A stretch of DNA of 64,000 bases from Candidatus Pacearchaeota archaeon (GTDB taxonomy: Archaea > Nanobdellota > Nanobdellia > Pacearchaeales > JAPDKA01), in assembly GCA_038890875.1 (NCBI GenBank), contig JAWAFA010000001.1:170996-234995 (forward strand), read 5' to 3'. The notes beneath the pieces were generated by a model that did no database searches, was not told the DNA's origin, and saw nothing but the letters and a program-made list of their open reading frames with translations. Of the stretch, positions 23,434-44,797 are shown one piece after another. Made by a program: the position numbers and the translations under genes. The first letter of the stretch is position 1, and each line of letters begins with the position of its first letter.

Positions 23434-24249
23434 TTATAGCTCATCTAGAGGATTCTTAATTTTCTTTAACTCTTCTGTACTCACATGTGTATAGATTTGA
23501 GTTGTATTAAGATTTTCGTGGCCAAGGAGAGTTTGGATTAGCCTTATGTCGGTGCCAGCTTCGAGCAAATGAGTAGCATAACTATGCCTTAGTGTATGAG
23601 GGGTTATTTTTTTATTAAGCTGTGCTTTCTTGGCTGCCTGCTGGACTATTTTTTGTATGTTGCGGGTAGTTAATGGTTTTTCCTTAGAAAAGAGGTAAAT
23701 GTTTTCAGGATGTTCTTTAAGGTACTCCCTCAAATCGCTACAAAGCTTTTCTGATAATACAAACATTCTATCCTTTTTTCCTTTTCCCTTTCTAACAATT
23801 CCTGTTTTTTCTTCAAGGTTTATATCTATTTTTTTCAAATTAACAAGCTCTGATACGCGTAAGCCAGTTGAATAAAGAAATTGAATAATAAGCCTTGATT
23901 TTCTAGTCTCCGCATTTTCGATTAATCTTTTAACCTCTTCTCTTGTTAAAACATTTGGTAGTGTCTTTTCTTTTTTTGGCCTTTCAATGCCTGCTGTAAG
24001 GTCCTTACCTAATATTTTTGTGCTTGCAAATTTTATAGCTGCTAATGCAAGAATTGCTGAGCTTGTTGCCTTGTCAGACATTACAGCCAAAAATCGTTTT
24101 ACATCATCCTGTGTTAATGCTTCAGGATCTTTTTTTGCCATTTCTAAAATTTTTGAATTGAAATACTTATAGTTCCTAATTGTTAGTTCTGACTTCTTTG
24201 TTAGCCTTAGTTCTGTTTCAAGCTTTTCAAGGAATTCTTCTTTTTGCAT
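23434..24249 (-). CDS. xerA: Tyrosine recombinase XerA
   Basis: TGLRVSEL, GKGKKDR, HTLRHSYATHLL, LLGH, TTQIYTH (full R-K-H-R-H-Y set). Confidence 0.9.
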   Translation of the reverse strand: MQKEEFLEKLETELRLTKKSELTIRNYKYFNSKILEMAKKDPEALTQDDVKRFLAVMSDKATSSAILALAAIKFASTKILGKDLTAGIERPKKEKTLPNVLTREEVKRLIENAETRKSRLIIQFLYSTGLRVSELVNLKKIDINLEEKTGIVRKGKGKKDRMFVLSEKLCSDLREYLKEHPENIYLFSKEKPLTTRNIQKIVQQAAKKAQLNKKITPHTLRHSYATHLLEAGTDIRLIQTLLGHENLNTTQIYTHVSTEELKKIKNPLDEL

Positions 24250-25011: not shown

Positions 25012-25044
25012 AAGATTTATAAACAAAAGCAATCTTTGATTTTT

Positions 25045-25686
25045 ATGCTGTTTGGTTTCTTTAGAAAAAGAAAAATTGAGAATGAAATTGAACGTTTGAA
25101 GAGCATTATGAAAGATTCTTTTTTAAATGTAAAAGATGACTTAAATAAAATTTCACACTGGATAAGTTATTTGAATGAAAAAGATAAAGAACTCGACGTA
25201 AAAATTGAAAAAGTAGAAATGAAAATTGATGAAATTAGTAAAGAATTAACTGAGTTGAAAGAATTTTTAGCTCTTTATTCTGGGGTGTTTAAACAGCTGT
25301 TTAAACACCAAACAGGTGTTGAAGGTGTTCAAACACCTGTTCAAACAGGTGTTCAAACAGCTCTAAATAGAAAAAGTTCAAAAAATATCGTGCTACAAAG
25401 TTTAACTTTGATGGAAAGAGCAATCTTGTGGGTATTGTTAAACACTGATATGAAGCTAAGTTGTGAAGACATTGCAAGAGTGCTTGGAAAAAATGAAAAT
25501 ACTGTAAGGGGGCAGTTAAATAATCTTAAAACAAAATGGCCTAGTTTAGTAGGAGAAATAATTGAAAAAAATGGAAAGAAAAGATATTATGTTGAAGAGA
25601 AAACAAAAGAGCTCCTTCTAAAAGAAATAAAAATGAAGGCTAAGACTAATAAAAAGAAAGAAGAGAGAGAAAAAAGTTCATATTAA
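25045..25686 (+). CDS. Coiled-coil / repeat linker / winged-helix protein A
   Basis: N-terminal coiled coil, QTGVQTPVQTGVQT linker, C-terminal LTLMERAILWVLL...LSCEDIARVLGKNENTVRGQLNNL wHTH. Confidence 0.8.
   Translation: MLFGFFRKRKIENEIERLKSIMKDSFLNVKDDLNKISHWISYLNEKDKELDVKIEKVEMKIDEISKELTELKEFLALYSGVFKQLFKHQTGVEGVQTPVQTGVQTALNRKSSKNIVLQSLTLMERAILWVLLNTDMKLSCEDIARVLGKNENTVRGQLNNLKTKWPSLVGEIIEKNGKKRYYVEEKTKELLLKEIKMKAKTNKKKEEREKSSY
25284..25361. repeat. Intragenic array of TGTTYAAACA boxes (12-bp period), including a perfect 26-bp palindrome
   Basis: GGTGTTTAAACAGCTGTTTAAACACC (25284-25309); TGTTCAAACA at 25326, 25338, 25350. Confidence 0.9.
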
Positions 25687-25701
25687 GTGTAAATTCTTGT
25701 T

Positions 25702-25936
25702 AAAAAATTAAAAAGTGAGGGTTAGTTATTAAATGAAGCAAAAAAGACAAAAGAGAGTTAAAAAGGTATTAAAAAGTGTTAAAAGTGCTTAAAAAATAAC
25801 AAAAAATTAAAAAGTGAGAGTTAGCAAACAATAAATTAGCAAAAATAAGAATTAATAAAGGATAAAGCAAGAGCAAAAGTAAAGCAACTAAAGCTAAAAC
25901 GAACTTTTAAAAATAAAAAACATAGAAGTGAGAGTT
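25702..25936 (+). repeat. Intergenic direct repeats AAGTGAGRGTT
   Basis: 24-bp copies at 25702-25725 and 25801-25824 (23/24 identical); 11-bp core again at 25926-25936. Confidence 0.75.
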
Positions 25937-25993
25937 TATCAAAAGAAATTTTAGTAAAAGCTTTTTTTCGGTTAACAGAAAAGGTTAGGAAGT

Positions 25994-26770
25994 TTATGGA
26001 TTAACAAGTCTTTCAAGTGCTTCCAAGCTTGATATTTTTAATATCTCGTTGGGGATCGAAAGAAAAACTTCCTTGCCATGATAAGTTTCTTTTTGGATTG
26101 GAATGCCTTTAATAATGAGTCTATTAACAAGGTCACGTACTGAACTCGGCGCTAAGCCAGTTTTTTCAGCAAGACTTTTATAGCTTATCTTCAATCCGTT
26201 TTGTTGCAGAGAATAAATAAGTGCAAATATCTCGAATTCTTTTTTTGTTAAAGCTTTAAAACGCTTTATTAAGATCTGTTTATAGTTATTGACTATATGT
26301 TCAATTTTTTCAAGCTCACCTTTGTTTTCTTTTTCTTGTTGGAATAGATTTTGAGTTAAGGTTCTTGGTTGGACTTGTTGAGCTGGTTGTATTTGCATGC
26401 CTTGGAATGTTTTTGATGTTTTTGACTGTAAAAAGTTCGTTTTAATGTGACGTAGGATTGACGTAGATGTGTTGGAGATGTGTTGGAGATGTGTTGGAAC
26501 CCCTTTATTTCCTATGGAATTCTTGAAATAAGTCTTATCTCCTTCATTTTTTTCTTTATTTTCCACAGGAAAAAAGGGTGTGTTGGAAATGTGTTGGAAA
26601 TGTGTTGGAACCATTTTCCATTTTTCTTGTATATTTTTTACATCTTCAAGCTCTTTTTTTATAACTTCTAAATCTTTCCTTAACGCAAGAAGTTCATTGA
26701 AAATGAAATTAATATCTTGTTTTACAATTGCAAAAGTTCTCCTTATTACTTCTTCATCTTTTTTTTCCAT
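25994..26770 (-). CDS. Coiled-coil / repeat linker / winged-helix protein B (paralog of A)
   Basis: TFAIVKQDINFI resembles SFLNVKDDLNKI of protein A; C-terminal LTKKEFEIF...ISYKSLAEKTGLAPSSVRDLVNRL wHTH. Confidence 0.8.
   Translation of the reverse strand: MEKKDEEVIRRTFAIVKQDINFIFNELLALRKDLEVIKKELEDVKNIQEKWKMVPTHFQHISNTPFFPVENKEKNEGDKTYFKNSIGNKGVPTHLQHISNTSTSILRHIKTNFLQSKTSKTFQGMQIQPAQQVQPRTLTQNLFQQEKENKGELEKIEHIVNNYKQILIKRFKALTKKEFEIFALIYSLQQNGLKISYKSLAEKTGLAPSSVRDLVNRLIIKGIPIQKETYHGKEVFLSIPNEILKISSLEALERLVNP
26465..26497 (+). repeat. 3 x 11-bp tandem repeat AGATGTGTTGG (intragenic)
   Basis: Three perfect copies. Confidence 0.95.
26499..26519 (-). promoter_or_regulatory. ORB-like element inside gene B
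   Basis: Minus strand TTCCATAGGAAATAAAGGGGT; shares GAAATAAAGGGGT exactly with the oriC ORB at 37424. Confidence 0.75.
26561..26581 (+). promoter_or_regulatory. Second, inverted ORB-like element inside gene B
   Basis: TTCCACAGGAAAAAAGGGTGT, 17/21 identical to the element at 26499-26519. Confidence 0.65.
26579..26610 (+). repeat. 3 x 11-bp tandem repeat TGTGTTGGAAA (intragenic)
   Basis: Copies at 26579, 26590, 26601. Confidence 0.95.
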
Positions 26771-26800
26771 CTTAGCATAGGGAATTTTATTTTATAAAAT

Positions 26801-27070
26801 TTACTTTTCATTTCTCTCTTGTAGGCTTTTATAGGCAAGATACGCCTTATCAGATAATGTCCACTTTATTTTTCGCAAGAAGTTTGTATTAACCCTTTTT
26901 ACAAGCCCATCCTTCTCAAGCTCGAAAAGGATTTTTTTAATAAATTCTTCATCACGAGCAAGCTCAGAGGCTATATTAGAAGTAAATAAGACGCTTGGCA
27001 TTTTCTCAAACAACAGTGCAAGAATGCTTTCTTTAATTTTCTTAATCTTGGCTTGGCTTATTGCCGGCAT
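26801..27070 (-). CDS. Small winged-helix protein C
   Basis: ILALLFE...LFTSNIASELARDEEFIKKILFELEKDGLV...WTLS wHTH pattern. Confidence 0.75.
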   Translation of the reverse strand: MPAISQAKIKKIKESILALLFEKMPSVLFTSNIASELARDEEFIKKILFELEKDGLVKRVNTNFLRKIKWTLSDKAYLAYKSLQERNEK

Positions 27071-27127
27071 AGTTTAGAATAAAGAAAAGTAGTTTAAAAA
27101 TTTATATAGGTTTGATCACATAAAATG

Positions 27128-27448
27128 TTAATTATATTTTTTATTCCACCATATTTTCATTGTTTCTTTTTCTATTGAATATTCATTTCTAGCCAGGCCT
27201 TTACTATCATAATATTCATGAAGAAGCTCATGCAAGATGGTAATTTCTTGCTCTTCTTTTGGTAAGCCTTTTTCTATGTATATCTTATTATTTTCATAAT
27301 CAATAAACCCATAAATCGATCTTGCTGAATATTTCTTAAATTCCTTTTTTCTCTTCATTGACACTAATTCTATATCAAATTCTTCTAAAATTTTCATTAA
27401 AAAACTATGATCATTCAAGATTTTTTTCAGCTTCTTACTAAATCTCAT
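27128..27448 (-). CDS. HExxH zincin-like protein (ImmA/IrrE-like)
   Basis: GFIDYENNKIYI...ITILHELLH...E. Confidence 0.65.
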   Translation of the reverse strand: MRFSKKLKKILNDHSFLMKILEEFDIELVSMKRKKEFKKYSARSIYGFIDYENNKIYIEKGLPKEEQEITILHELLHEYYDSKGLARNEYSIEKETMKIWWNKKYN

Positions 27449-27513: not shown

Positions 27514-28110
27514 CTAAGAGCTAGGCCCGATCTTTTTTGGCAAATACATCTTTATTTTGTCATTTTCTTTTAAAAAATCTAAAATTTTCTCTGTCCTAAT
27601 TGTAAGAGTATAGTTAGGTATAAGAGAATACCTCTTCTCGTTAAAATCATATTTGTATATCTCTTGATGCAAAATTACCCATTGATACCCTATATGTTCT
27701 TTTGTCAACGTTGGTTCATAACGCCTTAAAACAACAATCTTAAAGAGGTGAGATACTATCTCATTAAATTTACTTTTTGTTATTATCTTACCTAATGGCT
27801 CAACTAAATTAATATTTTCTCCACTAAGTCCTGTTTCTTCACTTATTTCGCGCAATATGCTCCTAAATATATTTTCAGAATGGTGCTCTTCTGTATTAAG
27901 ATTTCTTTCTAGTGCCCTTCTTCCACCAACAATTTCCCATTTTAAATTTATTTCAGGATTTTTTCTGCTTCGTTCATAGCTATTCTTCAAAAGCAACAAT
28001 TCCCCACAAAGTTCATTGTTTACATTGTATTGGAATATTATTAAGCCCCTAACCTCTTCATTTTTGATTTCACCTACTTTCTCAATATTTTTATAACCTA
28101 TTATTTCCAT
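27514..28110 (-). CDS. NUDIX hydrolase
   Basis: WEIVGG...ILREISEETGL, EHIGYQW; start revised to MEIIG to avoid overlap. Confidence 0.75.
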   Translation of the reverse strand: MEIIGYKNIEKVGEIKNEEVRGLIIFQYNVNNELCGELLLLKNSYERSRKNPEINLKWEIVGGRRALERNLNTEEHHSENIFRSILREISEETGLSGENINLVEPLGKIITKSKFNEIVSHLFKIVVLRRYEPTLTKEHIGYQWVILHQEIYKYDFNEKRYSLIPNYTLTIRTEKILDFLKENDKIKMYLPKKIGPSS

Positions 28111-28204
28111 TATGGCTGAAAAAAATTTATATATGTTAAGGATAAGAAGTTTTAGTAATTTAAAAAGTTTAGAGGCATTGCTTCGTAGTAATATATTGGG
28201 AAAA

Positions 28205-30835
28205 ATGGTAGGCATAAAACTTATTGAAAAACCAAATAGCAAAGAAGAGCTACTTAGCATACTTCATCCTCTCGTTAAGGAGTGGTTTTTTTCAACTTTT
28301 AAAGAGTTTAGTTTGCCTCAACTTTACGGAGTTTTACCAATATGGAACAGGCAAAACATACTTATAAGTGCTCCAACAGGAGGAACAAAAACATTAACAG
28401 CTTTCTTAGCAATAATAAATTATTTAATAACTCTCGCTGAAAAACAAAAACTGGAAGATAGGGTTTACTGCATTTATATTAGCCCTCTTAGAGCTCTAAA
28501 TAATGATATCTATATTAACCTTAAGATACCTCTTCACGAAATAAAGGAAATAGCTAAAAAGAAAGGGATAAAACTTAGTGAGATTAATGTTGGTTTAAGA
28601 ACAAGTGATACTAGTATTGATGAAAAGGCAAAACAGCTTAAAAGACCACCACACATACTTGTTACAACTCCTGAAAGTTTGGCGATAATCCTAACAAGTA
28701 AAAAATTTGTAAAACATCTAACTGCTGTTGAGTTTTGTATTATTGATGAGGTTCATGCTTTAGCAAACAACAAAAGAGGAGTTGATCTCAGTTTAAGTCT
28801 TGAAAGACTTTACCATATTTCAACAATTGAACCAGTTAGAATAGGTTTAAGTGCAACTATTGCCCCTCTTGAAGAAGTTGCTAAGTTTCTTGTTGGTTAT
28901 AAATATGAAGAAGGAAAATACGAGCTAAGAGATTGTCTCATAGCTGATGTAAGATTTGACAAAAAAATAAATATTGATGTTCTTGCTACAAGCTTTTTTG
29001 AAGATTATGAAAAGCAGAGCAAGGAACTTTATAGCTTAATAGATAATCTTATTCAATCTCATAAGAGTACATTAATTTTTACTAATACAAGGAGTGGAAC
29101 AGAACGAGTAATAAACCATTTAAAAGAGATGTTTAATAGTTATGAAAATAATATTGGGGCACACCACTCTAGTTTAAGCCGTGCACATAGATTCGCGATT
29201 GAGAACATGCTAAGAGAAGGTAAGCTAAAAGCTGTTGTCTCATCAACAAGCCTTGAACTTGGTATAGATATTGGCTATATTGACCTAGTTCTCTTGCTTG
29301 GAAGTCCAAAAAGTGTAGCTCGAGCTTTACAAAGGATTGGAAGGAGCGGGCATAAATTGCATGAAAAAGCTAAAGGTCGTTTTATCGTTCTTGATAGAGA
29401 TGATCTCGTCGAGTGTACTATTATGGCAAAATGCATTAAAGAAAAAAGTATTGACAATGTTGATATACCAAAAAACTGTTTGGATGTGTTATGCCAGCAT
29501 GTTTATGGTGAGGCTATCAATAAAGTATGGTATATTGATGATTTTTATAATCTTGTAAGACAGAGCTATTGCTATAATACTTTAAAAAAAGAAGATCTTT
29601 ACAATGTTATTGCATATTTAAGTGGGGAATATTTTGGCTTGGAAAAAAAAGGTATTTATGCAAAAATATGGTTTGATGAAAAAACACGTGAGTTTGGAAG
29701 ACGCTCAAAACTTGCGCGAATGATTTATATGACAAACATTGGCACAATTCCTGAAGAAAGTTATGTAGACGTAATTATCTCCTTACCAAACCAAAGAAAA
29801 GGAGAAAAAATAGGGGTTATTGATGAAGCTTTTCTAGAGAGATTGAAACAAGGTGATGTTTTTGTTTTAGGGGGGCAAAAATATATGTTCCTCTATTCAA
29901 GAGGAATGAAAGCTTATGTAAATGCATCAGTTCAAAGACCACCAACAATTCCAAGTTGGTTCTCTGAACAGCTTCCTCTAAGCTTTGATTTAGCCTTAGC
30001 AATACAGCGATTTAGAAAACTTGTGGAAGAAAAACTAAAAATGAGCAAGCAAGAATGTATAAAATTTATTCAGGATTATTGTTATTGTAGCGAGCAGATT
30101 GCTAAACTCATCTATGATTATTTTTATGAGCAATATTATTTTAGTGAAATACCTCATGAAAAAAAACTAGTTATCGAGCTTTACAAGGTTGCTGATGGTA
30201 AAAAATATTGGATATTTCATAGCCTTTATGGCAGACGTGTTAACGATGCTTTGAGCAGGGCTCTAGCTTTCCTTGTTGCTAAATTAGGTAAACGTGACGT
30301 AGAGATAGGAATAAATGATAATGGTTTTTATATTGCAAGCTATGATAAACTACAAGTTGAACAAGCTTTTAACGCCCTTATAAAAAATTGGGAAAAGCTC
30401 GAGCTAATTCTTGAAGAAGCTATTGAAAAAACAGAAACTTTCAAAAGAAAGTTTAGGCATAATGCTGTTAGAAGCTTTTTGATTTTGAAAAGTTATAAAG
30501 GAAAGAATAAATCAATAGGCAAGCAACAACTTCAATCTGAACTACTCTATAATACAATAAAAGCTATAAATCCAAATTTTCCTGCGATTTGCGAAACTCG
30601 AAGAGAAGTACTAAATGATTTTATGGATGTTAAAAATGCAAAGAAAATTCTTGCTTGGCTTGAAGAAGGAAAAATAAAAATAAAAAGAATTGAAACTGGC
30701 CTTCCAAGTCCATTCGCTCTTAATATTGTTGCTCTTGGCTATCTTGATTTGTTAAAAATAGAGGATAGAATAGAGTTTCTGCGAAGAATTCATGAAAAAA
30801 TTTTAGAAAAGATAGGCACAAAAGTACAAAGTTAA
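28205..30835 (+). CDS. lhr: Lhr-family SF2 helicase
   Basis: APTGGTKT, DEVH, GLSAT, HHSSL, SLELGIDIG, QRIGRSGH, GTIP; start likely MVGIK. Confidence 0.92.
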   Translation: MVGIKLIEKPNSKEELLSILHPLVKEWFFSTFKEFSLPQLYGVLPIWNRQNILISAPTGGTKTLTAFLAIINYLITLAEKQKLEDRVYCIYISPLRALNNDIYINLKIPLHEIKEIAKKKGIKLSEINVGLRTSDTSIDEKAKQLKRPPHILVTTPESLAIILTSKKFVKHLTAVEFCIIDEVHALANNKRGVDLSLSLERLYHISTIEPVRIGLSATIAPLEEVAKFLVGYKYEEGKYELRDCLIADVRFDKKINIDVLATSFFEDYEKQSKELYSLIDNLIQSHKSTLIFTNTRSGTERVINHLKEMFNSYENNIGAHHSSLSRAHRFAIENMLREGKLKAVVSSTSLELGIDIGYIDLVLLLGSPKSVARALQRIGRSGHKLHEKAKGRFIVLDRDDLVECTIMAKCIKEKSIDNVDIPKNCLDVLCQHVYGEAINKVWYIDDFYNLVRQSYCYNTLKKEDLYNVIAYLSGEYFGLEKKGIYAKIWFDEKTREFGRRSKLARMIYMTNIGTIPEESYVDVIISLPNQRKGEKIGVIDEAFLERLKQGDVFVLGGQKYMFLYSRGMKAYVNASVQRPPTIPSWFSEQLPLSFDLALAIQRFRKLVEEKLKMSKQECIKFIQDYCYCSEQIAKLIYDYFYEQYYFSEIPHEKKLVIELYKVADGKKYWIFHSLYGRRVNDALSRALAFLVAKLGKRDVEIGINDNGFYIASYDKLQVEQAFNALIKNWEKLELILEEAIEKTETFKRKFRHNAVRSFLILKSYKGKNKSIGKQQLQSELLYNTIKAINPNFPAICETRREVLNDFMDVKNAKKILAWLEEGKIKIKRIETGLPSPFALNIVALGYLDLLKIEDRIEFLRRIHEKILEKIGTKVQS

Positions 30836-37298: not shown

Positions 37299-37423
37299 GA
37301 AATTTTTATTTAAGTTTTATTTATAAAGTTTTCTATGTTTTAATTTAGATTATTTTTTTATTTATTTTTTTATTTTAATTTAATTTTTTTTGATTTAATT
37401 TTATTTTATCACTTAACCATCTT

Positions 37424-37580
37424 ACCCCTTTATTTCAAGTAGAAAGTTTTATAAATAAAAAATTTAACCTGTGGTTTTTCAAAAAATAATTTAAAAGTTT
37501 AATTATACTATTATATATATTTTTTATAACATATTAACGAAAATAAATAATAAAAAACTATCTACTTGAAATCTAAGGGT
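37424..37580. other. Replication origin oriC: inverted ORBs flanking an AT-rich DUE
   Basis: ORB (minus) TTTCTACTTGAAATAAAGGGGT 37424-37445; ORB (plus) TATCTACTTGAAATCTAAGGGT 37559-37580; directly upstream of cdc6. Confidence 0.85.
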
Positions 37581-37728
37581 TTTTCTTATTTCTTTTGGAA
37601 AGAAATACTTCTTCGTATATAATAAAAATAACGACAATAACTAACAATAACCTCCATAAGAAATAGACCTCTCTAACTGTTATATTTAATTTCAACAAAA
37701 TTTAAAAATAAAAGAAAGATTTTTTTTG

Positions 37729-38922
37729 ATGGCATTAAACATAGATAAAATTTTTGATAATGTTATAAGAAAAAGCATTTTTAAAAACAAAGCAGTTTTG
37801 CAATCAGACCACACTCCAGAAATAATTCCTCATCGTGAAAATCAAATAAAACAAGTAGCAAAGATTCTTTCTTGTTCTTTACGACTAGAAAAGCCAAGCA
37901 ATCTTTTTATTTACGGTAAAACTGGGACTGGGAAAACACTTGTTGTAAGGTATGTTATTAATGAAATGTTGAAAAAAACACAAGAACTTAATATTCCTGT
38001 AAAATTAGTTTATACTAACTGTAAATTAAAAAAAATTTCAGATACTGAATACAGAATCCTCGCAGAAATTATTAATTTATTAGGTGGTAAAGTGCCAGCT
38101 ACAGGCCTTCCTACAGATACTATCTATAGAAAATTTGTCGAATTAACAGACGAAAAGCAACAGCTTGTCATAATTGTTCTTGATGAAATTGATGAAGCTG
38201 TAAAAAAAATTGGTGATGCTTTCTTATATAATCTTACTAGATTAAATTCTGAACTAGTAAACTCTCAAATAAGCCTTGTTGGAATAAGTAATGATTTAAC
38301 ATTTATTGACTCACTTGATCCACGAGTTAAATCAAGTTTAAGCGAAGAAGAACTTGTTTTTCCTCCTTATAACGCCTTGCAACTTCAAGATATATTGAAA
38401 GAAAGAGCAAAAAACTCATTTAAAAAGAATGTTGTAAGTCAAGGAGTAATCGAAAAAATTGCAGCTATTGCTGCTAAAGAGCATGGTGATGCAAGACGAG
38501 CTATTGATCTTTTGCGAATAGCTGGTGAACTTGCAGAAAGAGAAGGTAAAGAAAAATTAACTTTAGAATTTGTTAATAAAGCAATTGAAAAAATGGAAAA
38601 AGATAAAATTATTGATCTTGTTGAAACACAGCCAAAACATCACCAACTTATCTTGCTTTCAATAATTGAGTTTAGTGAAAAAACAAAAGAGAAATTTTAT
38701 ACCGGGGATATTTACAATAAGTATGTTGAATTGGCAAGAGAACTTAAACTTGAACCATTAACACAGAGAAGAGTAAGTGATATTGTTGCTGAGCTTGACA
38801 TGCTTGGTCTTATTAATGCCCAAGTAATAAGTAAAGGGAGGTATGGGCGAACAAGAGAAATAAGGATGAATTTACCACAATCATTAATTTCTAAAATTAA
38901 AACAATAATCAACCAAAGCTAA
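37729..38922 (+). CDS. cdc6: Orc1/Cdc6 replication initiator
   Basis: GKTGTGKT, VLDEID, FPPYNALQL, GDARRAIDLL, C-terminal WH GRYGRT. Confidence 0.96.
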   Translation: MALNIDKIFDNVIRKSIFKNKAVLQSDHTPEIIPHRENQIKQVAKILSCSLRLEKPSNLFIYGKTGTGKTLVVRYVINEMLKKTQELNIPVKLVYTNCKLKKISDTEYRILAEIINLLGGKVPATGLPTDTIYRKFVELTDEKQQLVIIVLDEIDEAVKKIGDAFLYNLTRLNSELVNSQISLVGISNDLTFIDSLDPRVKSSLSEEELVFPPYNALQLQDILKERAKNSFKKNVVSQGVIEKIAAIAAKEHGDARRAIDLLRIAGELAEREGKEKLTLEFVNKAIEKMEKDKIIDLVETQPKHHQLILLSIIEFSEKTKEKFYTGDIYNKYVELARELKLEPLTQRRVSDIVAELDMLGLINAQVISKGRYGRTREIRMNLPQSLISKIKTIINQS

Positions 38923-38947
38923 AAATAAGCTAAAAAATTAAAATAAG

Positions 38948-40486
38948 ATGAATTTATCAAATATTTTTTTGAAGAAAGGTTTTTTACTACAACCAGACTT
39001 GATTAATTTTATTACTCAAGAAGAAACAGAGTTAATTATTGAGATATTGCAAGCTATTAATGCTCCAAAGATAATTTCTCTTAAATTTTTTTATGATAAT
39101 AAAACAAAAATAGTTTCAATGCTTAACTCTTTTCTAGAATTAAAAAAATTTGACCCTAGTATTATTCTCAACTTAAAAAAAAAATTAGAAGAAGAAAAAG
39201 AGAAAAAAGAGCTAATTAATGAGGTGGAAAGTGAAATAAATAAAAGTGAAGAAGAAAAGAGAATAGAGGAAAAAAAATTTTATTATAATGGTAATTTGTT
39301 TAAACCAAAAAAGATTGAAGTAAAGGATTTTCTCTCTTTTTTTAAAAGTAGGTATGAATGGTTTAAAGATTTTCTAAAAGATAGGAAGGAGTTAGTTAAT
39401 TTGACATCTATTGATAAATTACCAACAAATAACCAAAATGTTTCAATAATAGGGATGGTTATGGAAAAACGAGAAACAAAAAATAAAAATGTTATTCTTG
39501 AACTTGAAGATGGAAAAGGAATAGTTAAAGTACTTATAAATAAAAATAGAACTGTTTATGAAAAAACACATAGCATAGTCGAAGATGAAGTTATCGGTAT
39601 TAAAGGTTTTGGTAATAAAGAGATAATCTTTGCTTCAGAGATAGTCTTTCCAGAAATAGTCAATTTAAATAATAAAAAATGCTTTCTTGATAAAAACGCC
39701 CTTTTTCTCGCCGATATTCATATAGGAAGTGATAAATTTTTGGAAAGTAATTTTAAAAAAGCGATTAAGTGGATAAATGGAGAAGATGGAAATGAAAGGC
39801 AAAGAGACAAAGCGAAAAAAATAAGCCACATTTTTTTTGTTGGCGATATTGTTGATGGTGTTGGCATATACCCTGGTCAAGAAAATGAGCTATTAATAAA
39901 AGATATCATTGAGCAATATAAGTATGCTTATGAACTTTTCGATGAAATTAGGAAAGATATTAAGTTAGTATTTATTCCAGGAAATCACGATGCAGCTAGG
40001 ATAACAGAACCACAAGTTTTTAATATGTTTTCCAAACCACTACAAAAATTAGAAAATGCTGAGTTTTTACCAAACCCAACCTTTTATAATCTTTATGGTT
40101 ATAATGTTTTACTCTACCACGGCGCAAGCTTTGATTATTATGCAAATAAAGTTTATAGCTTAAAAGCAGCTAAAGCTTATGAAAATCCAGAAGAATTATT
40201 AAAATTTTTTCTTCAAAAACGACATTTAGCGCCAACACACGGCTCAACAGTCTATTCTCCAACTGATGAAGATTTTTTTATTATTAAAAAAGTTCCTGAT
40301 GTGTTTGTCACAGCTCATATTCATAAAACAGGAGCAACTCATTATAAAAACATAATTCTTATCTCTACCTCTTGTTGGCAATCACGAACACCTTACCAAG
40401 AAAAATTTGGGCATATCCCTGACCCATGTAAAATACCCCTCTTTAACACCAAAACAAAAGGAGTCCATATTTTAGATTTTAATTAA
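38948..40486 (+). CDS. DNA polymerase D small subunit DP1
   Basis: OB fold then DIHIGS, GDIVDG, PGNHD, YHG, RHLAP, HIH. Confidence 0.93.
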   Translation: MNLSNIFLKKGFLLQPDLINFITQEETELIIEILQAINAPKIISLKFFYDNKTKIVSMLNSFLELKKFDPSIILNLKKKLEEEKEKKELINEVESEINKSEEEKRIEEKKFYYNGNLFKPKKIEVKDFLSFFKSRYEWFKDFLKDRKELVNLTSIDKLPTNNQNVSIIGMVMEKRETKNKNVILELEDGKGIVKVLINKNRTVYEKTHSIVEDEVIGIKGFGNKEIIFASEIVFPEIVNLNNKKCFLDKNALFLADIHIGSDKFLESNFKKAIKWINGEDGNERQRDKAKKISHIFFVGDIVDGVGIYPGQENELLIKDIIEQYKYAYELFDEIRKDIKLVFIPGNHDAARITEPQVFNMFSKPLQKLENAEFLPNPTFYNLYGYNVLLYHGASFDYYANKVYSLKAAKAYENPEELLKFFLQKRHLAPTHGSTVYSPTDEDFFIIKKVPDVFVTAHIHKTGATHYKNIILISTSCWQSRTPYQEKFGHIPDPCKIPLFNTKTKGVHILDFN

Positions 40487-40487
40487 A

Positions 40488-41198
40488 ATGAAACCTTGCT
40501 TAAAAAGTTTAGAAAATTTAGAAAAAAAAGTAGTAGCTATTTTTGATGGAGATGGTACTCTGTGGCGTTTTGATGGAGAATTTGGAAGTTCTTGGGATAT
40601 TCCCAAGCAAGTATTAAGTGACAAAGAAAGAGAAATTTGGGAGAGAAGAAGTAAAATTTTCCATTCAAAATTTGAAGAAAGGGCAAATTTTTACGAATAC
40701 TTTCTCAAAGCACAGATTAAGTTATTAAATGGAAAAGAAGAAATAAAAAATTTTTCTATTCCATATATAGAAGGCGCAAAAGAAATTGTTAATTTTTTTA
40801 AAGAGAAAGGAGTCGAAGTTTTTTTGATAAGTGCTGGATTTTATAGCGTGATCAAAAAAGCAGCTGAAGAATTAAAGATAAAGTTCATTTCAAATGAAAT
40901 CGAAATAAAAAATGGTATTTATACAAAAAATACTAATTCGTATGTGACTCCTTTTAACAAAAATGAGATAATAAAAAAATTGGTAAATAATACCACTTTC
41001 TTAATCTTATTTTTTGACATTTATGACTTTAGTATTATAAATAATAACTTTAATAATGAAAATATAAAAATATTAATTTACAATGATAGCTCTTCTGGCG
41101 AAAAAGAAAAAGCTTTTTCACTATATAAAGAGAAAAAATGCGATTTTATTGCCAGCAATTTTTTTCAAGCAATTAAAGTAATTAAAGATAAAATATAA
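40488..41198 (+). CDS. HAD-superfamily hydrolase (SerB-like)
   Basis: IFDGDGTL, ISAGF; motif IV degenerate. Confidence 0.7.
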   Translation: MKPCLKSLENLEKKVVAIFDGDGTLWRFDGEFGSSWDIPKQVLSDKEREIWERRSKIFHSKFEERANFYEYFLKAQIKLLNGKEEIKNFSIPYIEGAKEIVNFFKEKGVEVFLISAGFYSVIKKAAEELKIKFISNEIEIKNGIYTKNTNSYVTPFNKNEIIKKLVNNTTFLILFFDIYDFSIINNNFNNENIKILIYNDSSSGEKEKAFSLYKEKKCDFIASNFFQAIKVIKDKI

Positions 41199-41203
41199 TA
41201 AAT

Positions 41204-44200
41204 ATGAAAATAAATTTCAAAAAATATTTTAACGATATCTTAGAAAAAACAAGAATAGCTTATGCTATTGCTGAAAATGCAAGAAAGAAAGGTTTTGATC
41301 CTATAAAAAAAGTTGAGATACCTCTAACAGCAGGGCTTGCTGAAAGAGCGACAGGAATTGTTTCAATTTTACACCCTCAAGTTAAAGATGAAAAAATAGA
41401 AAGAAGAATAAGGGAACTAGAGCTCGAATATGGCTTTCTTGAGCTTGGAACAGCATTAAAAATTGCCGAAGAAATAGCTAGTCAAAAATTTTGTCGTTTT
41501 TCGTCTAATTTAGAAGCAATTGAAGCAGGAGTTAGACTAGGTATTGCTTATTTAACTTTAGGCATTGTTTCAAGCCCCATTGAAGGATTTATCAGGCTCG
41601 AAATAAGAAAAACGAGCAACAATGAAGATTATCTCGCAGCTTTTTTTGCTGGGCCAATTAGAAGTGCTGGTGGAACTGTTGCAGCTCAATCATTAATCAT
41701 AATTGACTACTTAAGACAAATTTTTGGTTATGCAAAATATGACCCACAAAGTACAGAGGTAAAACGCGCCATCACAGAGATATATGATTATCATGAACGT
41801 ATAACTAACTTGCAGTATCTACCTTCTGAAAAAGAGATAGAACTTATTGTTAGTAACCTACCAATTCAAATAGAAGGAGAAGCAAGTGAAGAGATAGAAG
41901 TTAGTAATTATAAAGATTTACCAAGGGTATCAACTAACAGGATTAGAAGTGGTTTTTGCTTAGTGCTAGCTGAAGGAGTAGCAGCAAAGGCACCAAAATT
42001 AATTAAAGCTATTAAAAAGTTGAAGGAAAAAGGGATAAATATCGAAGGATTTGATTTTTTGACAAAACTTGAGAGAATAAAAACTGAAAAAGAAAAAGAG
42101 AAAGAAAATAAAGGAAAAGAAGTTAGTGAAACTTTAATTGCGCCTTCTTCTATTTACATTAAAGATATGGTTGCTGGCAGGCCAATTTTAAGTTACCCTT
42201 CAACTTTTGGGGGATTTAGATTGCGCTATGGTAGAACAAGAACAAGCGGTTATAGTGCAATGGCAGTTAATCCAGCACTAACATACTGCATTGATTTTCT
42301 TGCCATTGGCACACAATTAAGAACAGAAAGGCCAGGAAAATCTTGTAGCTTGGCAACCTGTGAAGTTATTGATGGACCAATTGTAAAACTTGATGATGGA
42401 AGTGTAATAAAAATAAATAATGTTGAGCAAGCATTGAAATATAGAGATAAGATAAAAGAGATAATCTATCTTGGAGATCTTCTTATTAGCTTTGGTGATT
42501 TCTTTAATAGAAACCATTTACTAATGCCGGCAGGTTATGTTGAAGAATGGTGGTTTTCAGAATTTAAAGACTTTATCGAAGAAATAACAACAAGTAATAA
42601 AAATATAGAAGAGGTGAATGAAGCACAGCGAGAATTAAATAATTTGAAAGACTATAATTACTTTAACTTAAGCCTCGAAAAGGCAATTGAGCTTTCTCTT
42701 AAATATAACCTCCCTCTATATCCAAAATATATTTTTTATTGGTCACAAATAAATTTAGAGCAACTTAAAGAATTATTGAAATGGCTTAAGAATTCTTATT
42801 TTAGTCCTGAAGGAAATTTGATTCTTTCATATTCAAAAACTAGAAGAGCAGAGTTAGAAATAGCAAAAAGAGCTTTAGAAATTGCTGGAGTAGAACATAG
42901 TGTTAGTATTGAAAATGTGATAATAAAAAAAGATGAGGCTAAAGCATTGTTACTTAATATCGGCATTTTGCATGCTAAAGAAATTAATGAGAATATTGAT
43001 AAAATAAATTCTTCAATAAAAGAAAGAAGTATAGACTTATTAAATAGGTTAAGTGAAGAAGAGAAAAAAGGAAAGAAAAGTGTTCTAGATTTTATAAATA
43101 CTATCTCTGATTTTAAGATCCGAGATAAAGCTGGAACTTTTATAGGAGCAAGAATGGGGAGGCCAGAGAAAGCTAAACCAAGAGTCTTAACAGGACAGCC
43201 AAATGTTCTTTTTCCTGTTGGTGATGAAGGTGGTCGTTTGCGAAGCTTTGATAGTGCAAAAGAAAAAGGGTTTATTAAAGCAGAATTTCCAATATTTTAT
43301 TGCAATAAATGCAAGTCAGAAACAATTTATTTTGTGTGTGAAAAATGTAATAATGAAACAGAGAAACGTTATTATTGTAATGAATGTAATAAAACATACT
43401 CAACAAATATATGTAAAGCACATGGACTTTTAAAACTTTACAAAAAAGCAAGAATAGATATTAATTATTATTTTGATAAAGCTATTGAGAAGCTAGGTTT
43501 GAGTAAGTTAGAAATTCCAGATGTTATAAAAGGAGTAAAGGGAACAAGCTCAGAGAATCATATTACCGAACATTTAGCTAAAGGAATCTTGCGGTCAATA
43601 TATAATCTACATGTTAATAAGGACGGGACTATTCGTTATGATGCTACAGAACTTCCAATAACTCATTTCAAACCAAGAGAGATTGGAACTAGCATAGAAA
43701 AGTTAAAGGAACTTGGCTATACTCATGATTGTTACGGAAATCCTTTAGTTAATGATGATCAACTCTTAATTCTAATGCCTCAAGACATAATATTACCAAG
43801 CACAAGCGAGAGTAAGGATGAAAGTGCGGATAGCTTCCTTTTGCGAGTTTCTAAATTTATAGATTCTTTACTAGTCCGATTTTATAACACAAAACCATTT
43901 TATAATGCTGAAAAAAAAGAAGATTTAATTGGGCAATTAGTAATTTGTATTGCTCCTCATAATGCTGCCGGAACAATAGCAAGAATAATTGGTTTTAGTG
44001 ATACACAAACATTCTTAGCAAGCCCTTTTTTACATGCAGCCATGCGTCGTGACTGTGATGGTGATGAAGCAGGGTTTATGTTATTACTCGATGCCTTAAT
44101 AAATTTCTCATTTGCTTATCTCCCTTCTCATAGAGGAGCAACTCAAGACGTACCAGTAATCATCAACTCAATAATAAGGCAAAATGAGGTTGACGATATG

Positions 44201-44797
44201 GTTTTTGATATGGAAAATACACAATTATTCCCTAAAGAATTTTATTATGCAACTCTTGAATATAAAAGCCCCCTTGAGTTAAAAATACCTCAAGTTAAAA
44301 ACAATCTTTCAGTAGCCGATGCATTCATAATTAACTTTACACATCCAACTCAAATTATAAGCGCAGGTAATAAATGTTCGGCTTATAAAAGTCTCGCAAC
44401 AATGAAAGAGAAAGTTGAAAAACAGATGGATGTTGGCATAAAAATCAGAGCAGTTGATGCAAGTGATTTAGCAATGTTAATAATAACAAAGCATTTTATT
44501 CGTGATATAAGGGGTAATTTGCGAAAGTTTTCCTCTCAGCAATTTCGTTGCTCAAAGTGCAATGCTAAATATAGGCGGCCACCTCTTGCAGGAAAATGCT
44601 TGGAATGTGGTGGCCCAATTATTTTTACAATCGCTGAAGGTACAATAAGAAAATATCTCGAGCCAGCTTTAGCTTTAGCACAAAAATACAATGTTAAAGA
44701 TTATGTAAAACAAAACTTAAAATTAGTTGAATTAAATATTAATGAATTGTTTGGCAAAGAGCAAATACAACAAAAAGATCTAAAGAAGTGGTTATAA
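41204..44797 (+). CDS. polC: DNA polymerase D large subunit DP2
   Basis: GPIRSAGGT, GFRLRYGR, RMGRPEK, RRDCDGDE, Zn fingers; no intein evident. Confidence 0.96.
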   Translation: MKINFKKYFNDILEKTRIAYAIAENARKKGFDPIKKVEIPLTAGLAERATGIVSILHPQVKDEKIERRIRELELEYGFLELGTALKIAEEIASQKFCRFSSNLEAIEAGVRLGIAYLTLGIVSSPIEGFIRLEIRKTSNNEDYLAAFFAGPIRSAGGTVAAQSLIIIDYLRQIFGYAKYDPQSTEVKRAITEIYDYHERITNLQYLPSEKEIELIVSNLPIQIEGEASEEIEVSNYKDLPRVSTNRIRSGFCLVLAEGVAAKAPKLIKAIKKLKEKGINIEGFDFLTKLERIKTEKEKEKENKGKEVSETLIAPSSIYIKDMVAGRPILSYPSTFGGFRLRYGRTRTSGYSAMAVNPALTYCIDFLAIGTQLRTERPGKSCSLATCEVIDGPIVKLDDGSVIKINNVEQALKYRDKIKEIIYLGDLLISFGDFFNRNHLLMPAGYVEEWWFSEFKDFIEEITTSNKNIEEVNEAQRELNNLKDYNYFNLSLEKAIELSLKYNLPLYPKYIFYWSQINLEQLKELLKWLKNSYFSPEGNLILSYSKTRRAELEIAKRALEIAGVEHSVSIENVIIKKDEAKALLLNIGILHAKEINENIDKINSSIKERSIDLLNRLSEEEKKGKKSVLDFINTISDFKIRDKAGTFIGARMGRPEKAKPRVLTGQPNVLFPVGDEGGRLRSFDSAKEKGFIKAEFPIFYCNKCKSETIYFVCEKCNNETEKRYYCNECNKTYSTNICKAHGLLKLYKKARIDINYYFDKAIEKLGLSKLEIPDVIKGVKGTSSENHITEHLAKGILRSIYNLHVNKDGTIRYDATELPITHFKPREIGTSIEKLKELGYTHDCYGNPLVNDDQLLILMPQDIILPSTSESKDESADSFLLRVSKFIDSLLVRFYNTKPFYNAEKKEDLIGQLVICIAPHNAAGTIARIIGFSDTQTFLASPFLHAAMRRDCDGDEAGFMLLLDALINFSFAYLPSHRGATQDVPVIINSIIRQNEVDDMVFDMENTQLFPKEFYYATLEYKSPLELKIPQVKNNLSVADAFIINFTHPTQIISAGNKCSAYKSLATMKEKVEKQMDVGIKIRAVDASDLAMLIITKHFIRDIRGNLRKFSSQQFRCSKCNAKYRRPPLAGKCLECGGPIIFTIAEGTIRKYLEPALALAQKYNVKDYVKQNLKLVELNINELFGKEQIQQKDLKKWL

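Follow-up and report, generated by a model that had tools for sequence, protein, structure and literature searches.

Gene B, a coiled-coil/winged-helix gene on the minus strand of the source genome, carries within its linker-coding part an origin-like cassette whose core, judged from the sequences compared, is probably a genuine ORB kept by selection at the DNA level. We read it as an auxiliary Orc1/Cdc6 site beside oriC, probably accompanied by repeats cognate to the B protein itself, and give this reading a probability of about 0.6. We infer binding by Orc1/Cdc6 and by B, as well as any effect on replication, from the evidence laid out below. All coordinates (Table 1) refer to the window, the whole stretch of 64,000 nucleotides that was analysed.

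The B protein opens with a coiled-coil helix (residues 2-52), which a linker (about 53-137) joins to a second long helix, and it ends in a MarR-like winged helix (176-256). It matches the Pfam family HTH_24 (1.2e-5), and NCBIfam holds no family for it. Its AlphaFold2 model falls below a pLDDT of 50 at residues 59-79 and 95-126, and on this prediction the linker is disordered. When the model was used in a fold search, the nearest structures were MarR-family proteins and generic winged helices, and no link to Orc, Cdt1 or WhiP was found there. Homologues of B occur in 38 of 41 relatives and in 125 of the 151 genomes of a second order. Next to it and convergent with it, tail to tail, lies a paralogue (A) of the same build, the N-terminal part of which is matched by the B profile (5.2e-6). 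The whole cassette lies within the B ORF and encodes residues ~52-100, that is, a part of the low-confidence linker between the two predicted domains; since the linker is predicted to be disordered, the peptide would be free to follow the DNA.

Table 1. Features of the B cassette and of the cdc6-adjacent origin (window coordinates).
Feature	Position	Strand	Description
Paralogue A	25036..25686	plus	same build as B; convergent with B, tail to tail
Gene B	25994..26770	minus	ORF of 258 aa, coiled-coil/winged-helix
Left array	26465..26497		AGATGTGTTGG x3, exact, 3 x 11 bp; coding strand CCAACACATCT x3; translated PTHLQHISNTS
ORB1	26499..26519	minus	TTCCATAGGAAATAAAGGGGT; exact pattern match; translated (N)SIGNKGV
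Spacer between ORB1 and ORB2	26520..26560		41 bp, coding (KEKNEGDKTYFKN), 78% A+T
ORB2	26561..26581	plus	TTCCACAGGAAAAAAGGGTGT; inverted second copy; minus-strand translation PFFPVEN
Right array	26579..26611		3 x 11 bp, TGTGTTGGAAA; third unit ends C; translated VPTHFQHISNT
oriC core	37424..37581		minus-strand ORB 37424-37444; 116-bp spacer, 88.8% A+T; plus-strand ORB-like element from 37561
Orc1/Cdc6 gene	37726..38922	plus	only one in genome (single Cdc6_C match); NCBIfam ORC1-type replication protein, 2.3e-150
dp1	38948..40486		downstream of cdc6; PolD subunit (NCBIfam)
dp2	41204..44797		after dp1; PolD subunit (NCBIfam)

The elements that the first-pass annotation had described in the cassette are all present where it placed them, except that the right array has C and not A as the last base of its third unit, leaving 32 of the 33 bases in agreement, and that the spacer is less AT-rich than had been implied. 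Its A+T content compares with 68% for gene B as a whole, and as 10.6% of the 41-nt windows of the gene are equally A+T-rich or richer, it is only modestly AT-rich. Both ORBs carry the dyad core TTCCA-N2-GGAAA(T), an exact match to the mini-ORB, followed on its 3′ side by a G-string that reads GGGGT in ORB1 and a weaker GGGTGT in ORB2. The left array directly follows the G-string of ORB1, and both arrays are oriented by the coding strand rather than by the polarity of the ORB that each one flanks. The 13-nt core corresponds to the Pyrococcus mini-ORB, whose binding by Cdc6 is documented by gel shift and ChIP in PMC1904270, and the oligonucleotides given there for the Pyrococcus ORB and mini-ORB agree with the dyad core as well.

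A chance origin of the ORB motifs is excluded. When the 21-mer was searched at up to three mismatches, three matches were found in the window against 0.14 expected, and none of 100 shuffles reached three. Over the genome (611,820 bp), the ORB pattern (14 specified bases, at most two mismatches) has only three matches, two of them in B, which are the two best, and one at the cdc6 origin; with three matches in the whole genome, ORB-like sites of this quality are not common. A search against Rfam gave two sub-threshold chance matches, neither of them at the cassette. Two other readings of the region were considered and dropped: a PIP-box (PCNA-binding) in the conserved K-P-Y-F stretch upstream of the ORB, where by eye the hydrophobic position is not kept, and an internal Shine-Dalgarno/start signal at GGGGT, which is not followed by a start codon.

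Codon usage under the ORB speaks strongly for selection on the DNA. In a set of 38 B ORFs retrieved by protein search, codon choice beneath ORB1 is almost invariant (TCC 33/33, GGA 33/34, AAT 31/33 and GGG 35/36), whereas other conserved serine and glycine columns of the same proteins rarely use the same codons (TCC 6/46, GGG 4/26), and codon entropy averages 0.37 bits within the ORB block versus 1.34 bits elsewhere. Thus the ORB is kept at synonymous positions, as the first-pass annotation had proposed should be looked for in homologues. The information profile follows the ORB and not the codon phase: variation falls at the dyad centre and in the 3-nt spacer, as one would expect for an ORB, instead of recurring at every third base, and the ORB core carries near-maximal information in sets of 20 and 16 orthologues. 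Moreover, the motif lies only in frame +2 in three genes of a first set (L073, L075, L076) and in four of a second set (L172, L203, L208, L212), where the peptide becomes V-P-Q-E-x-x-G-S and the DNA is unchanged. In one gene (L198) the motif is on the antisense strand only; all other primary copies are on the sense strand. The peptide SIGNKGV had been described as simply the ORB read as codons, and both the fixed codons and the copies in other frames or on the other strand bear this out. As far as aligned sequences can tell, the main ORB (26499-26519) is conserved as DNA and not as peptide, independently of the reading frame.

The motif is also widespread. An ORB-like motif is present in 62 of 64 B ORFs of the first set and in all 90 B genes taken by protein profile from the second order. 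Of 121 genomes of the source order, 110 contain the ORB pattern, whereas a reversed-pattern control gave no match. One locus (L018) has a two-mismatch copy in an open frame. Loci L022-L051 were selected by the DNA pattern itself and so cannot be counted for presence. The number of ORBs is usually one: 49 of the 62 ORB-bearing genes of the first set have a single copy, seven a tandem pair and six an inverted pair, and 88 of 90 genes of the second set have a single copy. Where two tandem ORBs occur they are 43 bp apart, the additional copy lying upstream and in frame +2 in seven genes; a few genes have convergent pairs. The upstream inverted second ORB is restricted to three of the four genomes (L001, L002 and L012) of family f1, to which the source genome belongs. 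It is lacking in the fourth (L003), and the ORB2 peptide is absent from P0003 and P0004. The inverted pair with its 41-bp spacer is therefore not the conserved feature: as far as these sequences go, the pair is limited to family f1, and what is general is the short repeat tract that follows the ORB. Because the pair is not conserved across the order, the order-wide evidence points to an initiator-binding site and not to a complete origin.

The canonical oriC lies 11 kb from the cassette, immediately upstream of cdc6. ORB1 and the cdc6-side ORB (37424-37444) have 13 consecutive bases in common as well as their outward orientation, exactly as the first-pass annotation had noted. The same motif was found about 100 bp upstream of cdc6 in five of five genomes checked, as second matches, and a loose pattern recovered a minus-strand ORB followed by plus-strand ORBs, forming inverted ORB-like pairs, in 20 of 20 cdc6-upstream regions of relatives. 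At oriC these intergenic copies occur in both orientations, and in other orders the ORB matches are intergenic and AT-rich. Gene B is almost always a few kilobases from the origin next to cdc6, with transcription heading away from that origin. By hand comparison of coordinate tables, from which both linkage counts come, B and cdc6 lie on one contig in 29 genomes of the source order, all divergent and 1.5-14 kb apart, and in 74 genomes of the second order, 70 of which are divergent at 4.5-23.5 kb; the distance is 1.5-23.5 kb in 99 of the 103 genomes with both genes on one contig. Cumulative GC skew along contig C1 is noisy, with a minimum at ~135 kb and a maximum at ~330 kb, and has no peak at B (197.5 kb) or cdc6 (208.5 kb); given this noise and the distance of the extremes from both genes, it cannot place an origin. 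A predicted complex of Cdc6 with B scored 0.00, which gives no verdict and cannot be taken as evidence on binding either way.

There is a precedent for intragenic ORBs. In Thermococcales, a Cdc6-bound ORB cluster lies inside dp1, the gene for the small subunit of PolD; it is conserved across the order, is bound by Cdc6 according to ChIP and gel shift, and is interpreted by the authors as another cluster at which the initiator binds (Matsunaga et al. 2007, PMC1904270). The ORB in B resembles this cluster in being intragenic, beside oriC and cdc6 and conserved across an order, and the cdc6-dp1-dp2 gene order is present here as well. It differs in its host, a winged-helix gene on the other side of oriC at a distance of 1.5-23.5 kb, and none of the three ORB matches of the source genome lies inside dp1, which thus has no full ORB. 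The B site also differs in falling in a region predicted to encode a disordered linker, in usually consisting of a single full ORB with its G-string, followed by lineage-specific short tandem repeats, and in that its binding by Cdc6 is a prediction. Under the auxiliary-site reading, the single Orc1/Cdc6 protein would bind the ORB with fixed polarity and B dimers would bind the short tandem repeats that abut it (11-bp units in the source genome), so that an initiator-containing complex would form on the flank of oriC. Such a complex would have the role of an auxiliary or regulatory cluster for initiator binding, comparable to that of the Thermococcales dp1 gene, and not that of a free-standing origin. 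In family f1 the second, inverted ORB would turn the site into a miniature origin-like module, repeating the asymmetry of oriC with GGGG on the left and GGTG on the right.

Nearly all B genes have a short tandem repeat after the ORB, the left array being its local form. The units depend on the lineage (GACA, CCAACACAT, CATT, CACT and TCAACAAT types), are mostly not multiples of three in length (4, 8, 10, 11 or 16 nt), and are stable in type within groups of the same B helix type that span several families. The recognition helix of B differs between lineages (RDY, RDL, RTY, RSY and RNY), whereas the ORB does not, and the repeats therefore fit better than the ORB as the target of B. We compared the two traits in a profile alignment of 147 of 150 rows, leaving out the three loci (L080, L081 and L198) without a sense-strand ORB. 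The RTY helix and the CATT repeat occurred together in 20 rows, with four rows having only the helix, four only the repeat and 119 neither; the corresponding counts were 43, 14, 4 and 86 for RD with GACA, and 4, 0, 0 and 143 for SG.RSY with CAC[TG]. About 7.7 independent contrasts run in the same direction and about 0.2 in the opposite one. The raw association is strong, but the link is not significant in any single test, each having one to three independent pairs on supported branches; four of the six trait pairs were chosen post hoc, and the tree is built from 94 columns. The co-variation of flanking repeats and helix that had been anticipated is thus borne out as a trend, in which the repeat unit appears to track the helix type, while the independent contrasts are too few for significance, and we regard the sequence evidence as suggestive.

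The same repeats could instead be by-products of slippage during replication, tolerated in a disordered linker and perhaps amounting to a phase-variable frameshift switch, with the ORB as the only functional element. We consider this the least unlikely of the alternatives, although still doubtful. It accounts for units that are mostly not multiples of three and that differ between lineages, for the location of the repeats in a linker predicted to be disordered and for their coding-strand orientation. Against it stand the stability of unit type within helix-type groups and the conservation of the peptide PTHFQHISNT on both sides of the ORB in P0002-P0004, relatives with 46-62% protein identity. 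Furthermore, none of the B ORFs examined (64 and 90) is interrupted between the two domains, and no indels or variants were seen at the repeats in contigs of four runs, although contigs hide rare length variants. The three copies per array, which had been taken as a sign of selection on the DNA since they keep the frame, instead show selection on the reading frame. The A+C-rich composition of the units may come in part from the need to avoid stop codons in all three frames, and this, like the coding-strand orientation of the arrays, counts against the auxiliary-site reading.

A more ambitious version of B binding, which we hold to be a little less probable again, is that gene B forms a self-sufficient module of the replicator type on a cellular chromosome and is conserved in both orders sampled from the class. 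B would bind co-evolving iterons in its own linker-coding DNA beside an ORB bound by Orc1/Cdc6, and the composite would be a second, B-dependent initiation, licensing or anchoring site, with paralogue A and its in-gene palindromes as partner; it would be the cellular archaeal counterpart of lambda O/ori. The lambda ori lies inside the gene of the initiator O, where the iterons of the origin occupy the linker-coding part between two domains. The B locus is similar in that replication-related repeats, which would be bound by the encoded protein, are found in the linker-coding part of a DNA-binding protein's own gene, beside an A+T-richer stretch. However, the initiator motif in B belongs to Orc1/Cdc6 and not to B, which is MarR-like and without a known replication role, and both origin activity and B binding are putative. 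In Bacillus subtilis, a parS site inside spo0J/parB is a single palindrome for ParB, likewise an origin-proximal site in the coding sequence of a DNA-binding protein, as is putatively the case in B; unlike the B locus, it has no initiator box, and ParB has no homology to B.

It is improbable, in our estimation, that the cassette is a free-standing second origin inside B, at which Orc1/Cdc6 on two inverted ORBs would load MCM across the 41-bp spacer. Canonical archaeal origins consist of inverted ORBs around an AT-rich unwinding element next to cdc6 (PMC12141716, PMC4010727), and the cassette resembles them in its ORB sequence, its outward G-strings and, in the source genome, its inverted pair. 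Indeed, its layout mimics that of the local oriC (a minus-strand GGGG ORB, a spacer and a plus-strand ORB of GGTG type), and the two best ORB matches of the genome are both found here. However, the spacer is short (41 bp against 116 bp at oriC), coding and only modestly AT-rich, unlike the strongly AT-rich, non-coding unwinding element expected of an origin (78% against 88.8% A+T). The pair is not conserved outside family f1 and even there is missing from one genome; elsewhere a single ORB, tandem copies or convergent pairs are found. The canonical origin is only 11 kb away, beside the only cdc6 gene, and GC skew does not turn at B. In Sulfolobus, an origin requires both of its inverted ORBs to be active, as described in PMC12141716, and by that standard the single ORB of most B genes also weighs against the auxiliary-site reading.

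Less probable still is that the ORB in B is an operator of B or of another winged-helix protein, each paralogue having its own site in its linker DNA, with B competing or cooperating with Orc1/Cdc6 at ORBs. Paralogue A does carry a repeat in the same place, TGTTCAAACA three times (at 25326, 25338 and 25350), and this repeat is conserved at the DNA level in 17 homologues, where it reads T GTY CAA ACA (CAA 45/45, ACA 42/45, preceding third base T 43/45). A dyad such as the ORB core is the typical target of MarR-like dimers. Nevertheless, this motif, asymmetric G-string included, also marks the cdc6-adjacent origin and matches experimentally defined Cdc6 sites, and it stays constant while the recognition helix of B varies. 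As for an action of the element as RNA or peptide, whether an mRNA structure or signal or an S-I-G-N-x-G-V-P motif with an unusual codon preference, the sense-strand position of all but one primary copy and a dyad that could form a 4-bp hairpin would agree with it, but it is very improbable and largely refuted by the frame-shifted copies, which change the peptide, and by the antisense-only copy, added to which are the intergenic oriC copies in both orientations, the lack of an Rfam family match and the predicted disorder of the region.

To our knowledge, the replication origins of DPANN archaea are essentially uncharacterised, and we found no paper that joins DPANN lineages with ORBs. The locus provides a sharply defined and testable candidate initiator-binding site in about 150 genomes of two orders, and it ties a widespread pair of "hypothetical/MarR-like" genes, A and B, to the neighbourhood of the origin. 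The site is kept under two overlapping codes, one for protein and one for DNA, and is a clean natural case in which selection on the DNA overrides the choice of codons and even the frame in which they are read. The pairing of helix type with repeat unit could provide a winged-helix family with a natural table of specificities. Should B and Orc1/Cdc6 occupy the site together, it would represent an accessory layer of origin control, or of the organisation of the origin region, in archaea with minimal genomes.

An integrase gene is located at 23434..24249. It prompted us to consider a dif/Xer site, an idea that we rejected as the same motif marks cdc6-upstream origins. Six public runs from two hot-spring metagenome studies contain matching sequence, none of those listed being an RNA run; one of them may be the source, and one contig of run X2 covers positions 25266-27200 without differences.

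The cassette described in the first-pass annotation, two origin recognition boxes (ORBs, the type of site bound by archaeal Orc1/Cdc6) between two arrays of 11-bp repeats inside the coiled-coil/winged-helix gene B, was confirmed, apart from one terminal base of the right array (table). The origin interpretation attached to it is partly supported. The B product combines a long N-terminal helix with a MarR-like winged helix at the C terminus; the stretch between them is disordered (model pLDDT below 50 at residues 59-79 and 95-126), and since the cassette encodes residues ~52-100, it lies within the linker.

Coordinates of the cassette, its host gene and related features in the window
Feature	Position	Strand	Remarks
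Direct repeats between A and B	25696, 25795, 25909		spacings 99 and 114 bp
Gene B, single ORF spanning the whole cassette	25994..26770	minus	258 aa
Left array, 3 copies of AGATGTGTTGG	26465-26497		
ORB1, TTCCATAGGAAATAAAGGGGT	26499-26519	minus	
ORB-ORB spacer	between ORB1 and ORB2		41 bp
ORB2, TTCCACAGGAAAAAAGGGTGT	26561-26581	plus	
Right array, 3 x 11 bp	26579-26611		final unit: C in place of terminal A
ORB-like elements upstream of cdc6, intergenic	37424, 37561	minus, plus	88.8% A+T between them
Orc1/Cdc6 gene (cdc6), sole copy in the genome	37726..38922		

B homologues occur in 38 of 41 related genomes, and among the loci retrieved by B protein search the string T TCC AnA GGA AAT nnn GGG GTT CCA is nearly invariant as DNA. 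In a codon set of 38 B ORFs, all collected through searches with a protein or a profile (20 from the order of the window genome, hereafter the order, and 18 from other orders), the ORB codons are nearly fixed (TCC 33/33, GGA 33/34, AAT 31/33, GGG 35/36), whereas at conserved serine and glycine columns outside the ORB the same proteins use TCC in 6 of 46 cases and GGG in 4 of 26. Codon entropy averages 0.37 bits across the ORB block and 1.34 bits elsewhere. Outside the order, the third base of the valine codon following GGGG is free, and this is the very position at which the ORB stops. The information profile, high at TCCA, GGAAAT and GGGGT and low in the centre of the dyad and in the 3-nt spacer, has no three-base rhythm. 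The synonymous sites thus speak strongly for selection at the DNA level, as had been proposed; the other argument made for it, that three copies of each repeat preserve the frame, fails, as copy number shows selection on frame only.

At the level of sequence, the strongest evidence for selection of ORB1 as DNA is that the element changes reading frame and strand. In the B genes L073, L075, L076, L172, L203, L208 and L212 the sole ORB lies in frame +2 and translates as V-P-Q-E-x-x-G-S, and in L198 (G299:C6:105601-107958), one of the 90 B genes of the second sampled order, it is antisense to the gene. With its ORB inverted, the L198 gene is still intact. An extra tandem ORB lies 43 bp upstream, in frame +2, in 7 B genes. 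Family f9 (L029, L031, L032, L040-L043) has tandem direct ORB pairs separated by exactly 43 bp, about four helical turns, with the upstream copy in frame +2.

At up to two mismatches, the ORB was found in 62 of 64 B ORFs, the two lacking it being L080 and the truncated L081; loci picked by the ORB pattern itself (L022-L051) carry no weight as evidence of presence. It occurs in 90/90 B ORFs of the second order, picked by protein profile from a set in which 4 genomes duplicate genomes of the first. The 21-mer pattern has matches with at most one mismatch in 110 of the 121 genomes of the order, mostly one per genome, and the reversed pattern had none in any genome of the same search. In all 37 relatives having a B gene that includes the linker region, a match lies inside B (coordinates compared by hand); in G028, where B is cut by a contig end, there is none. 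A second match, where present, precedes the single cdc6 by ~100 bp in 5/5 genomes checked. In other orders of the class, matches at the 12 loci fetched were intergenic or at gene ends, mostly AT-rich.

Matches of ORB quality, which the first-pass annotation would have taken as refuting if common genome-wide, are rare: in the window genome (611,820 bp in 5 contigs, 32% G+C) there are three at up to two mismatches, two in B and one at the cdc6-adjacent origin (oriC). The source name of a 62%-identical homologue places this genome in the Pacearchaeota. With a loose pattern, all 20 cdc6-upstream regions fetched showed a minus-strand ORB-like element with plus-strand ones 110-450 bp further on. A GGGG-type string belongs to the left element and GGTG-type strings to those on the right, and their dyads are more degenerate than that of the copy in B. 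Judged by sequence, the element in B is the same motif as the origin motif. In Pyrococcus (PMC1904270), the mini-ORB is identical to the core of the in-B ORB, and the ORBs, for which Cdc6 binding was demonstrated by gel shift and ChIP, resemble the full element. The neighbourhood at 37300-44797 is that of a canonical origin, in which inverted ORB-like elements, set in AT-rich intergenic DNA, are followed by cdc6, dp1, a HAD-family phosphatase gene and dp2. The order cdc6-dp1-dp2 is shared with Thermococcales; unlike in that group, no full ORB was found inside dp1 of the window genome.

B and cdc6 lie on one contig in 29 genomes of the order, always divergent and 1.5-14 kb apart (hand comparison), and on separate contigs in 7. 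In the second order, 74 genomes have both genes on one contig, divergent at 4.5-23.5 kb in 70 of them (hand count), the exceptions being G253, G273, G229 and G376. This linkage makes B a stable member of the origin neighbourhood. The polarity of the in-B ORB is normally that of the cdc6-distal ORB of oriC. One second-order genome, G292 (4% contamination), has two B matches. One of them resembles the window's order (6e-75) far more than its neighbours do, and it may sit on a contaminant contig.

In nearly all B genes the ORB G-string is immediately followed by a short tandem repeat, often with related units upstream, and the periods are mostly 4, 8, 11, 12 or 16 nt. Self-identity reached 0.8 or more in 12 of 66 ORB-adjacent windows, versus 0 of 264 control windows from the winged-helix-coding part; 4 of the 66 (L026, L027, L056, L059) are intergenic ORBs in chance long open frames. 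Units vary by lineage: the window genome has CCAACACATCT, most of the order has CAACAGACAG[A/T] or (CAGA)n, and the second order has (CATT)n, (AATC)n, (CAAA)n, (CACT)n or TCAACAATC-type units. The arrays to either side of the ORBs have an A+C-rich coding strand, and their orientation tracks the gene and not ORB polarity. Since PTHFQHISNT is retained to the left and right of the ORB in relatives whose protein identity is 46-62%, and since unit type goes with the type of recognition helix, we argue from these sequences that the repeats are not simply leftovers of slippage.

The helix-repeat counts (both / helix only / repeat only / neither) are 20/4/4/119 for RTY and CATT, 43/14/4/86 for RD and GACA, 8/0/5/134 for RHY or SSIRGY and CAAA, 14/6/3/124 for RN or T.RG and TCAACA, and 4/0/0/143 for SG.RSY and CAC[TG]. 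On a tree built from 94 columns of the domain, its helix being masked, each trait gave only 1-3 independent contrasts on supported branches; summed over six traits, ~7.7 were in the same direction, ~0.2 in the opposite one and ~4 without difference. As for the proposed covariation of repeats and helix, unit type tracks helix type, but no single test is significant. Because contrasts are few, the tests are mutually dependent and 4 of the 6 trait definitions were set after viewing the data, binding of the repeats by their cognate B is no more than plausible, at roughly even odds.

The inverted pair that gave the cassette its origin-like appearance is present in the window genome and is not general: an upstream inverted second ORB was found only in L001, L002 and L012, that is, in 3 of the 4 genomes of the window genome's family. 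As this copy is family-limited and the spacer between ORB1 and ORB2 is coding and only modestly AT-rich, the look of a complete origin is best read as a local elaboration. An independent origin in this family is possible, its one support being the ORB layout. A convergent downstream copy occurs in L010, L014 and L028, where the G-strings of the two ORBs face each other, a geometry opposite to that of the window's pair; in L028 (G054:C1) they are ~37 bp apart with a (CAGA)n-type repeat between.

Lambda O/ori and spo0J/parS are functional analogies to such an in-gene cassette. From motif identity, Orc1/Cdc6 would bind the in-gene ORB, and B, dimerized through its coiled coil, may bind the adjoining repeats, as covariation and the MarR-like fold suggest. 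The complex would form an auxiliary initiator-binding cluster on the flank of oriC, with a putative role in looping or cooperative loading, initiator titration, or organisation of the origin region. The B protein would tolerate any peptide dictated by the ORB and repeat DNA, since this DNA encodes a disordered linker. The closest precedent comes from Thermococcales, whose dp1 holds an ORB cluster bound by Cdc6 (PMC1904270). What is new here is that the host gene of the intragenic ORB encodes a DNA-binding protein, that the arrangement extends over ~150 genomes in two orders, that the ORB is preserved across reading frames and strand, and that it is coupled to a repeat tract tracking helix type. 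A literature search, supplements excluded, found no paper linking these lineages with ORBs.

The paralogue A (25036..25686, plus strand), a syntenic neighbour of B in most loci, has a similar build, with a short hydrophobic N-terminus, coiled coil, linker and winged helix. Its linker harbors at 25326-25359 a repeat, nnT GTY CAA ACA (1-4 copies, 12-bp period), conserved at the DNA level: in 17 homologues the codons are CAA in 45/45 (59% elsewhere), ACA in 42/45 and GTY in 45/45, and the codon ahead of GTY ends in T in 43/45 despite a varying amino acid. Of the 4 genomic occurrences of TGTTCAAACA, 3 lie in this repeat. Between the 3′ ends of the convergent A and B (25696-25936) are three direct repeats of ~24-28 nt, of AAAAAATTAAAAAGTGAGRGTTAG type (families D2 and D11). 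A XerC/D-type tyrosine recombinase gene (23434..24249, minus strand; Phage_integrase 9e-47) lies 1.7 kb from B. A NUDIX-domain ORF (27514..28260, minus strand) and an Lhr-type helicase ORF (28112..30835, plus strand) are listed with a head-to-head overlap of ~150 bp; for one of them the actual start codon probably lies more internally.
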